Origin: Pseudogymnoascus verrucosus
Taxonomy: Eukaryota
NCBI GenBank assembly: GCA_001662655.1
Contig: KV460221.1
DNA: 64,000 nucleotides
Reading direction: 5' to 3' (one strand)
The position numbers and the translations under genes are program-made. Positions 16,177 to 18,683 of this stretch are shown piece by piece. Below the pieces are notes generated by a model. It was not told the DNA's origin and ran no database searches. It worked only from the letters and a program-made list of their open reading frames with translations. Position 1 is the stretch's first letter, and each line of letters starts with the position of its first letter.

Positions 16177-16224
16177 TTTAGTCGGCCGAGCTGAAATTCT
16201 ATTGAACTACATACTACGACTAAA
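16177..16224 (-). promoter_or_regulatory. Conserved downstream (probable 3'UTR) stem-loop, copy after peptide B
   Basis: TTTAGTCG...CGACTAAA inverted ends with the conserved core (plus strand GCCGAGCTGAAA...CATAC). Confidence 0.7.
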
Positions 16225-16290
16225 GCATCCTCAATTCCTCGCCAGACTTTTCAGAACCCACCCTCCAAAGACACAGGAGACAAATCATTA

Positions 16291-16534
16291 TTATTTAGAA
16301 CACGTCCCAAAATTGTGAGCGGGAAGAGGCTAAAATTAATTTATGTTAGCATTCCAAAGGTAGTTATTGGTGCAAGCTAGCTATAATAGCAAGACTTACG
16401 ACACAACGAAGCCCTGAGCAGCATTTCATGCCTCCCATGCAAGCCCTTCCTTTGGTAACGCAATGCTTGCTGTCTAAAGAATCTGCTGCTGCTAGCGCAG
16501 CTAGGATAGTAAAAATAGCGAGTGAGGCCTTCAT
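16291..16534 (-). CDS. Secreted knottin-like peptide B, 57 aa (intron 16330-16399)
   Basis: Spliced product MKASLAIFTILAALAAADSLDSKHCVTKGRACMGGMKCCSGLRCVPLPAHNFGTCSK; C-x6-C-x5-CC-x4-C-x10-C; GTAAGT...GCTAAC...TAG intron. Not in the ORF track. Confidence 0.9.
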
Positions 16535-16986
16535 GTTGGTAGTTGCGAAGCGACCGAATAATGTATGAGTTGAAGTGTCTTTTGAATATCAGGCACAATT
16601 GATGGGGGCACGTAGACTCTTATAACCTACGCGTTGGTATCCTTGGTTGGAGTATACCCTGGGGTTTGAATTACTGGCATTATGTGAGACACTATGTTAC
16701 TAGCCTGGCGACGCCGTACACACACTGCATACTAGTTACTCAAACATGTCCAGCTGCAAACTTCGGTCTTTGGATAACCAAAGTATTCGTGCCGCCCAAA
16801 AGTCCGAAGAGGGACCGTATGTAGCCGAAGATTGATACACATAATTTGAGCTAATAGGATGTCTATCTTTGGTTCTATCTCTGGGTAACAAACATGAAAA
16901 TTACTGCAATCACTACTATCATCCACAGTCCCTCCTCGGACCTCTGGGCAGCATGAGTAACGTGTATGGTAAAGACAGTATTGCAA

Positions 16987-17035
16987 TTAGTCGGCCGAGC
17001 TAAAACTCCATCGGAGAACTCCATACAACGACTAA
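16987..17035 (-). promoter_or_regulatory. Conserved downstream stem-loop, copy after peptide C
   Basis: Plus strand TTAGTCGGCCGAGCTAAAACTCCATCGGAGAACTCCATACAACGACTAA. Confidence 0.7.
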
Positions 17036-17110
17036 ATCACCCTTAATTCCTCCAGTCGAACCTCCCTGTATAGCTATCTTGAAAACCACGTTACTGGAAG
17101 GCGGATATCC

Positions 17111-17354
17111 CTAGTTTTGGTAGCAAATTCCAGTGGTATAGCTAGCGGGCTGTAGCTAGAGTTAATGGATATGTTAGCGTGTCAGAGAACTTCCACTCCC
17201 TACAAAAACTTACTTTGCAGGTAAGCCCATCGCAGCAAGATTTATCTGAACGGCAGAGTTGATATTCATTTTTGCTTGGTTTTTCAAGCTCTCCAAAAGT
17301 ATTTGCTGCAGCCAGTGAAGCCAGGAGAGTTAACAGAGCAATTGAGGCTTTCAT
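17111..17354 (-). CDS. Secreted knottin-like peptide C, ~61 aa, Cys1 replaced by Ser (intron 17156-17213)
   Basis: Spliced product MKASIALLTLLASLAAANTFGELEKPSKNEYQLCRSDKSCCDGLTCKLQPASYTTGICYQN; canonical intron. Confidence 0.85.
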
Positions 17355-17719
17355 GTTGACAGATTATAAGACAGCTGAGTAATATTTCCGTCAACGTGGT
17401 TCTTGAAATCAGGCGGCTGGAGCGCGGGCCTTTATATGTCGTACTTCTTGAACGGGCGGTGGATTGGGCTACAAACTCAATTCTCAATTGATAGCATTGT
17501 CCGAACTAACCAAATAAACAATACATTGTTATGATATATCACCCATTGAACACAAATTGAATTCTAGTTACTTCTAAGCAAGGGGTTTTGAATCACCGTT
17601 ATGTTTCATTTCGCTGCTAATTTCTATTGAGACAAATTCCATATTAACATCCCCAACTACAACCTTCGGGAGTCGATTGGTTGGTCTAAATTGGAAATAA
17701 AGGCAACACAGAAACCCAA

Positions 17720-17770
17720 CTTCGTCGCCAGAGCTGAAATTTAAATAGAAAACTCCATAGAATAACGAAG
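17720..17770 (-). promoter_or_regulatory. Conserved downstream stem-loop, copy after peptide D, with a compensatory change
   Basis: CTTCGT...ACGAAG replaces TTAGT...ACTAA; core GAGCTGAAA...AACTCCATA is retained. Confidence 0.7.
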
Positions 17771-17826
17771 CATTGCCCTCAATCCCTCGATATCTGTTTG
17801 CAAACCATGCTACTAGACAGCACTTT

Positions 17827-18070
17827 CTACCAGCGGCAATGCGTAGCTAAAATGTTTGTCCCCTGGATTTAACAAGCATGTTAGTATGCTGCTAGCAATA
17901 GAAGTATCGACGACGGCTGCGGCACCTACAATACAAGTGAGTCCTTCACAACAATCGCCATACCCCACTCCACCACACCTTTCCCCGTGGGTGTTGCATG
18001 GCACCTCTTTCAGAGGATTTGCAGCTCCGAGGGAGGCAATAATGGTGAGAAGAGTAATTGAAATCCTCAT
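17827..18070 (-). CDS. Secreted knottin-like peptide D, 58 aa (intron 17863-17929)
   Basis: Spliced product MRISITLLTIIASLGAANPLKEVPCNTHGERCGGVGYGDCCEGLTCIGTNILATHCRW; C-x6-C-x7-CC-x4-C-x9-C. Confidence 0.9.
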
Positions 18071-18634
18071 TTTGGTATATTGTAAGACGGTGGAAAGATA
18101 TAACAGCGAGTTTGGGATTAATATTTATTCTGAAATTCGAGAAAGAGGGAATGCGCAGTCTTTTATAGTCCGTAAGCTATATTTTCCAGTGTCAGAGACA
18201 CGGAGTTGCTAGCCTAGCGAAGTAGTACTGTTATAACCTAGGGGTAGATAACTCATTTTATATTTGTAAAAGTAAAAGCAAACGCCAGGTAGCGATAAGC
18301 CATTTGAGGGGCAGTGAACTCCAAGACAGGGACAACGTTTTTAAAGCCCTGTAAGAGGACTTGCCGTTCTAAGGGTAGCTAGGACAGTTAAAAAATAAAT
18401 GTTAACAGGTTGTAAGAGGGCAAAGATGTGAATGTTGGCTTATGTTGGATATTTAGAACAGGGGAAAACGGAGGCTTCGATGTAGGGTTATCCTTTGCTC
18501 GTATAAGTGCATGGCACTGCTGTGATCTACATCTCCCCTGCTTAAACTTTAGATGGGGAACACAAATTAAATGCTATGACAGGGGCAAACGACAAAAACT
18601 ATATTCATGTTACTATTCTTATTTAAATCTAACT

Positions 18635-18683
18635 TTAGTCGGCCGAGCTGAAACTCCATTGGAGAACTCCATACAACGACTAA
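18635..18683 (-). promoter_or_regulatory. Conserved downstream stem-loop, copy after peptide E
   Basis: Plus strand TTAGTCGGCCGAGCTGAAACTCCATTGGAGAACTCCATACAACGACTAA. Confidence 0.7.

Follow-up and report, generated by a model that had tools for sequence, protein, structure and literature searches.

A conserved hairpin behind small secreted peptide genes of Pseudogymnoascus verrucosus as a candidate family-specific 3' untranslated region element

Family-specific hairpins of the 3' untranslated region (3'UTR) that are bound by dedicated proteins include the histone mRNA stem-loop, iron-responsive elements and the selenocysteine insertion sequence (SECIS). Cone-snail toxins form gene superfamilies in which the signal region is conserved and mature peptides are hypervariable, and integron attC sites are imperfect inverted repeats at the 3' end of short genes in same-strand arrays. 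The consulted part of the work on mussel MgCRP-I (PMC4558851) describes a gene superfamily with conserved signal and UTR regions and a hypervariable cysteine (Cys)-rich peptide, while the consulted parts of two screens for conserved fungal RNA structures (Li and Breaker 2017, PMC5640933; Gao, Jones and Rivas 2021, PMC8216456) present UTR structures supported by covariation, including 3'UTRs of thioredoxin, RING-finger protein and thioesterase genes. Fungal knottins, as covered in the consulted sections of PMC4503680, comprise the 'Fungi1' family and Avr9 and are expanded in the Onygenales. Here we analysed a 64,000-nucleotide (nt) stretch of Pseudogymnoascus verrucosus DNA (assembly GCA_001662655.1, contig KV460221.1; hereafter the window), in which an element of about 63 nt, predicted to fold as an irregular hairpin, lies behind tandem genes for small Cys-rich peptides with signal sequences; copies also occur in other soil fungi.

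We propose, at about an even chance, that this conserved sense-strand 3'UTR hairpin docks a conserved trans-acting factor and thereby gives its host mRNAs a common post-transcriptional handling. This reading is favoured because of the position of the element, its fixed orientation, its conservation as an island, the covariation of its stems and the unrelatedness of the host peptides that share it. As an RNA motif it is probably new in sequence, while its general kind, the family-specific 3'UTR hairpin, is known. Its hosts are uncommon for such a motif, and the range over which it seems to occur is unusually broad.

The element and its host genes in the window

The window contains a minus-strand tandem array of five small genes, A to E, between 15.6 and 19.4 kb, with starts at 15892, 16534, 17354, 18070 and 18984. 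The exon/intron structures of genes B to E are gene models read from the sequence; each has a signal peptide, a single intron of 50-70 nt and a short exon 2, and each is predicted to encode a secreted Cys-rich peptide of 57-61 amino acids. Six Cys in the order C-C-CC-C-C, a knottin-type framework, are found in B, D and E. Element copies are given below in plus-strand coordinates; the genes lie on the minus strand, so that the mRNA sense is the reverse complement.

Aligned in mRNA sense over 15 copies, the element begins with a purine-rich lead-in that is followed by the basal stem P1 (7-11 bp), in which the inner GUCG/CGAC is fixed and the outer part is variable and covarying. After the 5' arm of P1 come a UU bulge, the 2-bp stem P1b (G-C, U.G), an AUG/G internal loop and the stem P2, GAGUU/AGCUC with a fixed U.G pair, next to which stands a 4-nt 3' bulge (UUUA, UUUC or UUUU). 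The apical hairpin P3 is variable, with 3-5 bp and a loop of 3-5 nt, and G(C/U)GGG follows the whole hairpin in most copies. The features of the array are as follows.

15638..15892, minus strand: gene A, a signal-peptide Cys-rich open reading frame (ORF) at the array end, element-free (ORF list)
16177..16224, minus strand: element copy B; P1 pairs 16177-16184 with 16217-16224, P3 degenerate; 65.8 bits
16227..16243, minus strand: purine-rich motif 5' of copy B, in mRNA sense GGCGAGGAAUUGAGGAUG
16291..16534, minus strand: gene B (gene model); exon 1 16400-16534, intron 16330-16399 (70 nt), exon 2 16291-16329; 57 amino acids, 6 Cys
16987..17035, minus strand: element copy C; P1 pairs 16987-16993 with 17029-17035; 80.9 bits
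17039..17054, minus strand: purine-rich motif 5' of copy C, GGAGGAAUUAAGGGUG
17111..17354, minus strand: gene C (gene model); exon 1 17214-17354, intron 17156-17213 (58 nt), exon 2 17111-17155; 61 amino acids, 5 Cys
17720..17770, minus strand: element copy D, the most diverged intact copy; 63.7 bits
17771..17790, minus strand: purine-rich motif 5' of copy D, UCGAGGGAUUGAGGGCAAUGC
17827..18070, minus strand: gene D (gene model); exon 1 17930-18070, intron 17863-17929 (67 nt), exon 2 17827-17862; 58 amino acids, 6 Cys
18633..18685, minus strand: element copy E; P1 pairs 18635-18641 with 18677-18683; nearest the wider consensus; 81.3 bits
18686..18699, minus strand: purine-rich motif 5' of copy E, AGAGAUCAAGGGCG
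18749..18984, minus strand: gene E (gene model); exon 1 18847-18984, intron 18797-18846 (50 nt), exon 2 18749-18796; 61 amino acids, 6 Cys
19321..19364, minus strand: element copy F, a decayed fifth copy with the 5' arm of P1 broken; 46.1 bits
19364..19400, minus strand: 5'UTR-like sequence fused to copy F, resembling the 34 nt at and before the D and E start codons

An earlier description of this DNA, made from its letters only (the sequence-only reading), had placed the element some 55-75 nt behind the stop codons of B, C, D and E, and in the gene models the basal stem indeed follows the stop by 66, 75, 56 and 65 nt, respectively. Its view that the element is more conserved than the mature coding sequence was likewise borne out: in a whole-unit alignment of the four paralogues the element block retained 11-13 invariant columns per 25, compared with 11-12 for the signal peptide and 1-8 for the mature peptide, and in the same alignment there were 0-2 invariant columns per 25 over the 75 nt before the element block and 0-4 in the sequence after it. 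The element with its purine-rich lead-in, which is present in copies B to E as that reading had said, is thus the best-conserved block of the repeat unit, an island amid unconserved sequence. Copies C and E, said to differ at about two positions, differ at 2 of 49. The paired change reported for copy D, from UUAGU/ACUAA to UUCGU/ACGAA, is present, and D carries two compensatory changes in all, A-U to C-G in P1 and G-C to C-G in P1b; the reported UUUC bulge (UUUU in C) and the GAGUU/AGCUC stem with its U.G pair were also recovered.

A 23-nt probe allowing up to 3 mismatches matched four places in the window and none in 100 shuffles. All four copies of the sequence-only reading stood, but its set was incomplete, since the decayed copy F (19321-19364), beyond the range given there, had been missed; with a covariance model run with filters off, no further copy was found in the 64-kb window or its flanking sequence. 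The unit to which copy F belonged has lost its coding sequence, intron and purine-rich motif, and the 5'UTR-like sequence now joined to the element is 76-77% identical to 18069-18102 and 18983-19008, as found from repeat families and by alignment. With the gene, pairing was lost too: copy F scores 46 bits, compared with 64-81 for copies B to E.

The host genes vary around this fixed block. Gene C has 5 Cys and lacks the first framework Cys, yet its element copy is among the best. Gene A has a signal peptide 60% identical to that of B at the DNA level, no clear intron, and 7 Cys if unspliced; no element copy was found near it by cmsearch with filters off. A TATAAA box is invariant across the four units, about 75-90 nt before the starts (plus strand, near 16620, 17430, 18163 and 19070), and its presence before every start indicates that each gene has its own promoter. 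Against Pfam, the window peptides matched spider-toxin knottin families only, below threshold (Toxin_7, E-value 0.014; Toxin_12, E-value 0.015), and no family was assigned to any host peptide. A protein search with gene B exon 1 gave a single weak partial match, a yield which suggests that such genes are poorly annotated.

Copies elsewhere and their gene context

Parts of the array are present in contig sets of related genomes (X1, X2 and X3). A 3009-nt contig of X1 is colinear with 15679-18680, with 89 differing letters and 19 gaps. Compared with X1 and X3, copy B lacks 3 nt of its apical part (GGA on the plus strand, behind 16203), and at 16215 it has T where X1 has A; from these letters the window copy B appears slightly decayed, and the X1 and X3 versions nearer the consensus. 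Further contigs of X1 to X3 match the window only over the copy E stretch, with both flanks unlike, and contig depth was 79 in the bin over copy E and 19.5 around it. These element-only matches, with the raised depth, indicate that the element is present at other loci of the related genomes, where the sequence-only reading had advised looking. In one X1 contig, a paralogue, the likeness to gene E is confined to the element and a part of the signal-peptide region.

When metagenome contigs were scanned with a degenerate pattern, which fixed 21 core bases and left diverged copies unsampled, 10 loci (L001 to L010) were obtained, in about seven independent groups, L001/L003 being one locus and L004/L007/L008 another. 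These 10 copies score 77-98 bits under the covariance model built afterwards. The core pattern had no match in 185,579 prokaryote genomes and none in viral contigs. At 7 of the 10 loci (L001/L003, L004/L007/L008, L005 and L010; 4 of the roughly seven groups) the start of a Cys-rich ORF with a signal peptide lies 277-399 nt upstream, on the strand of the element, and where the gene is readable the gap from stop codon to P1 is about 20-47 nt. Wherever a gene can be read, then, the element lies 3' of a small signal-peptide gene whose strand it shares, and the genome-wide scatter expected of a transposon end, which the sequence-only reading had raised, was not seen. A signal-peptide ORF downstream was found at none of the 10 loci (102-2500 nt of downstream sequence examined). 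A promoter element of the next gene, which would fit the window, was rejected on this ground.

The host mature peptides are mutually unrelated, yet the element is common to them. The L001 gene matches a hypothetical protein of Fusarium oxysporum at 99% identity and has relatives in Colletotrichum. The sole named relative of the L004 peptide is in Linnemannia elongata (46% identity, with the Cys-rich end almost identical), and in L010 a signal peptide resembling those encoded by B and C in the window is joined to a mature part of the L004 type. Comparisons within L004/L007/L008 and L001/L003 were too similar (mostly 33-40 of 40 columns identical) for extra constraint on the element to show. In one gene model of Fusarium, half of an L001-type peptide, the first, is fused to a thioredoxin domain; the model is probably an annotation artefact that skips the peptide end and the element. 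The thioredoxin 3'UTR structure of Gao et al. was considered as an identity for the element and rejected, as this fusion model puts the thioredoxin downstream of the element.

Some of these loci bear on whether the element acts as DNA. The apical loop of L001 (2517-2525) is inverted relative to L003 (AAC compared with GUU) while the stem is kept; outside the element the two contigs show about 2 differences in 1545 aligned columns, and the change reads as a DNA-level hairpin flip. A site in DNA or folded single-stranded DNA for recombination, conversion or cassette exchange, at which mature-peptide segments are swapped or arrays expanded, would account for this inversion in otherwise almost identical contigs, for the composite L010, for the X1 paralogue whose likeness to gene E is limited to the element and signal-peptide region, and for copy F, where the element edge is joined within about 2 nt to 5'UTR-like sequence and a whole gene is missing; the core also contains an 8-bp palindrome, TCGGCCGA. 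We nevertheless consider such a site, the alternative offered in the sequence-only reading, improbable. Copy F is the only example of its kind, most metagenome copies accompany one gene and not an array, and the orientation to the gene is fixed. The conserved part is moreover the asymmetric middle and not the ends, with the covarying stems left unexplained, the two invariant U.G pairs described below would be A.C mismatches on the other strand, and no integrase, recombinase or transposase Pfam match was obtained among the 23 scanned window ORFs of at least 220 amino acids (of 26).

By analogy with attC, the hairpin might be a 3' module that moves about in a eukaryotic system of 'peptide cassettes', recognised as a folded single strand that marks a boundary or a place of recombination, and we think this just as improbable. 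Secreted-peptide genes unrelated to one another would carry the module along or swap it; copy F would be an emptied unit and L010 a reshuffled one, and the module may have spread across fungal phyla, as judged from the Fusarium-like contig and the peptide with a Linnemannia relative. Least probable of all the readings weighed here is a miniature transposon or transposon end, or a functionless, slowly diverging remnant of recent duplication. Inverted-repeat ends and several loci per genome would fit it, but the arms vary and covary around a fixed interior, which is the reverse of a terminal-inverted-repeat element; no target-site duplication was found in the flanks of the copies, and the context is non-random, with the element shared by contigs with unrelated host peptides and standing as an island in unconserved flanks.

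The foremost rival of the docking hairpin is a signal for 3'-end formation. The hairpin, G(C/U)GGG and a weak pyrimidine-rich motif could together position cleavage and polyadenylation or termination, acting as a strong terminator for short and probably highly expressed genes that insulates the tandem genes from read-through. We regard this as possible but doubtful. In its favour, paralogue similarity stops directly after the element, the five window elements lie 286-565 nt ahead of the next same-strand gene start, and the distance from stop to element ranges from about 20 to about 190 nt, so that the element is not tied to the stop codon. UGUA motifs are of a class used in fungal poly(A) signals, and a UGUA-type motif occurs in the conserved 5' half of 13 of the 15 copies, although copy D is without it. 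A weak GUCUNUACC-like motif follows the element in several copies, in a downstream alignment whose columns average 38% identity. Poly(A) signals of fungi tend to be short, degenerate sequences, and to our knowledge no 3'-end signal needs a 63-nt hairpin with fixed wobble pairs. The pyrimidine-rich motif itself, 10-14 nt after P1 and following G(C/U)GGG, reads GUCUAUACC, GUCUCUACC, GUCUUUACC and GUUUAUAC and was seen in L009, L006, window copy C, L001 and others; this motif may belong to the module or to a poly(A) site.

Covariation, fold and sense strand

We examined pairing over the 11 independent copies. In this set 88.7% of cells were paired, compared with 80.6% in shuffles, 11 pairs had changed on both sides (5.5 in shuffles) and the covariation score was 0.266 (0.126 in shuffles); none of 500 shuffles reached any of these values. 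When the partners were slid by 1-3 columns, 23-47% of cells were paired. The outer stem and the apical hairpin therefore covary beyond both the shuffled and the slid controls, and the covariation put forward from the four window copies holds in this larger alignment. The two pairs adjoining the fixed GUCG/CGAC are the clearest example, with one UA in 7 copies, CG in 3 and GU in 1, the other AU in 6, GC in 3 and CG in 2, and no unpaired cell in either. L001 has CCAAU/AUUGG in P3 instead of CUCC/GGAG and maintains P1 via two G.U pairs. RNAalifold, given no structure, predicted the same helices P1, P1b, P2 and P3, and 6 of the 7 independent metagenome copies adopt the same fold at minimum free energy on the sense strand (sense folding z-scores of the seven: -3.07, -1.23, -1.10, -0.09, -2.46, -2.14 and -0.28).

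Two U.G pairs, one in P1b and one in P2, are invariant in 11 of 11 copies, never U-A or C-G, and would be A.C mismatches on the opposite strand. From these pairs and the constant orientation to the gene, the sense RNA is likely to be the active form.

A coding exon was rejected as an identity, as the core measures 40, 43, 45 or 46 nt, with differences that are not multiples of 3, and stops interrupt the frames; one frame reads through the element in some copies. A very short spliceosomal 3'UTR intron, or a decoy that binds U1, was also weighed and is very improbable. In this model a GUAUGG donor, a CCGAC or ACUAA branch site and an AG acceptor before (C/U)GGG would remove 41-43 nt; GUAUGG or GUAUGU is present in 14 of the 15 copies, and in each of the 7 independent metagenome copies an AG follows the start of CGAC by 7-13 nt. 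The bona fide introns of genes B to E, in contrast, span 50-70 nt and have a donor of GTAAGT or GTAGG type and a perfect CTAAC branch site 17-24 nt before the AG (4 of 4); the element is shorter and has no such branch site, its candidate CCGAC or ACUAA standing only 2-9 nt before the AG. At the donor the intact copy D reads CU, not GU; copy C offers no AG over about 45 nt; and a splice signal leaves the invariant P2, the bulges and the 5' flank unexplained.

We also asked whether the element belongs to a described RNA class. A scan with cmscan against Rfam 15, at E-values up to 10, over window positions 14000-21000 and loci L004, L010, L002 and L009 gave no match overlapping any copy, consistent with the description of the structure as new in the sequence-only reading. 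By eye and against consensus sequences, none of the SECIS core, the kink-turn, the bulge-helix-bulge, the Ire1-type loop and the tetraloop receptor fits the fold. Invariant 'loop' nucleotides with covarying stems are typical of ribozymes and riboswitches, and the core is identical in contigs of apparently distant fungi; both would fit a small ribozyme of a new kind that cleaves itself, or a 3'UTR RNA with some other catalytic or ligand-binding role. The chance of this reading is nevertheless slimmer than that of the intron, as no known ribozyme or riboswitch family matched at E-values up to 10 and the element is a simple irregular hairpin with no junction or evident pseudoknot.

Several further features were recorded at these loci. 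On the minus strand of L009, about 250-850 nt upstream of the element, there are 9 consecutive AG|NNN|GTRRGT sites at 72-77 nt spacing (0.11 expected in shuffles), and at 6 of these sites a CTRAC precedes the AG by 27-28 nt; the 3-nt 'exons' between the intron-like units read ATG AAA TGT CTA TGT CGT GAC CCC CGT, then TTC TAG. Tandem Repeats Finder (TRF) detected no tandem repeat in L009 despite this regular 72-77-nt spacing. L006 has 3 such units at 2169-2420 (TRF period 73, 3.5 copies), and L005 has, upstream of the element, three dissimilar canonical introns separated by exons of 6 and 9 nt, with a stop codon opening the last exon. These arrays could be micro-exon peptide genes or proliferating introns. 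In the window, other ORFs carry fungal transcription-factor, Zn2Cys6 and fungal-rhodopsin domains (Pfam), and a photolyase-like ORF has a mainly Ascomycota cluster as its nearest atlas cluster, which by itself would mark the DNA as fungal and probably from an ascomycete. A citrate-synthase-like ORF (1009-1998) and a PrpD/MmgE ORF (29576-30415), of methylcitrate-cycle type, point to an ordinary metabolic neighbourhood.

A docking hairpin and its relation to known systems

The sequence-only reading had put forward a 3'UTR RNA structure that regulates the family in cis, and its structural part is supported here. We propose the following working for the docking hairpin. Read in mRNA sense, the element would form a hairpin in the 3'UTR of small secreted Cys-rich peptide genes, in which the fixed irregular middle (the UU bulge, the AUG/G loop, the two wobble pairs and the UUUN bulge) could serve as the docking site for a putative factor, most likely an RNA-binding protein. 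The stems would only need to pair, leaving their sequence free to covary. Once bound, the factor would impose a shared post-transcriptional fate on the mRNAs of a fast-evolving gene superfamily; the effect we favour is control of translation, of targeting to the endoplasmic reticulum or of stability of very short secretory ORFs. Transcription, folding, factor binding and effect of the element are each predicted from its position and conservation pattern.

Several points weigh against this proposal. The placement of the element inside transcripts leans on typical fungal 3'UTR lengths, and the trans-acting factor is putative only. At L002, L006 and L009, three independent groups, no readable upstream signal-peptide gene or first exon was found in the sequence examined. 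Folded singly, the window copies did no better than shuffles on either strand (sense z-scores +1.43, -0.21, -1.07, +0.04 and -0.14), and the antisense z-score was the more negative in 5 of the 7 metagenome copies; the sense minimum free energy was below the antisense one in 7 of 7, and we draw no strand call from energy. P2 is invariant, so this helix is unproven by covariation, and the invariance of the core among metagenome copies is partly by construction, given the 21 bases fixed in the search pattern. The structure was partly derived from the same 11 sequences, a small sample, which flatters the slid controls. Finally, the argument for the RNA strand that the sequence-only reading drew from G-U wobbles held for the two invariant U.G pairs but not for the variable pairs, where 11 G.U against 10 A.C give no strand signal.

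Fungal effectors, toxins and antimicrobials are drawn mainly from small secreted Cys-rich peptides, which are hard to group, their sequences being too diverged. If the docking hairpin is as proposed, it would define a post-transcriptional regulon for such genes, of which none is described for fungi in the literature searched, and would open to test the handling of mRNAs whose ORFs fall below the length needed for ordinary co-translational targeting. The covariance model would offer a nucleotide-level handle for tiny intron-containing peptide genes that gene callers miss. If the core is truly identical in distant fungi, very strong selection or horizontal movement would need explaining.

Literature word searches returned no description of such an element, and searches of full-text literature with core strings returned unrelated primers only. 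In the consulted parts of the two fungal screens (PMC5640933, PMC8216456), none of the 17 tabulated structures lies behind secreted-peptide genes and most are single-copy per genome, and the words 'secreted' and 'signal peptide' are absent from the main texts of both, supplements aside. The consulted part of the fungal knottin expansion paper (PMC4503680) makes no mention of a 3'UTR element.

The element nevertheless shares features with each of the systems introduced above. With integron attC sites it has in common an imperfect inverted repeat 3' of each short same-strand gene and arms whose structure is kept over their sequence; it differs in being eukaryotic, in the promoter of each gene, in a conserved centre instead of conserved ends, in the mostly solitary copies elsewhere and in the lack of a recombinase among the 23 scanned window ORFs of at least 220 amino acids. 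The host peptides, like fungal knottins as described in the consulted part of PMC4503680, are small, secreted and encoded by multi-copy families, with a C-C-CC-C-C framework of 6 Cys, but unlike them they have only sub-threshold Pfam knottin matches (best E-value 0.014). The array is like MgCRP-I, so far as the consulted part of its description goes, and like the cone-snail toxins in its conserved signal region and non-coding flank, its fast-evolving 6-Cys mature peptide and its tandem arrangement. Compared with these, the conserved non-coding part here is a discrete hairpin in which compensatory changes occur; unconserved sequence lies between this hairpin and the coding sequence, and the hairpin is shared by genes whose signal peptides are barely alignable. 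Like the catalogued fungal structures (PMC5640933 and PMC8216456, in the parts consulted), it is a UTR structure supported by covariation. The histone stem-loop, iron-responsive elements and SECIS differ from it in that it matches no Rfam family, its host genes encode hypervariable secreted peptides and its factor is putative; with respect to SECIS in particular, the AUGA/GA core is absent by eye and the host genes have no in-frame UGA. What the element would share with these three is a short 3'UTR hairpin common to a set of genes, with fixed irregular nucleotides, covarying stems and a common handling of the mRNAs that carry it.

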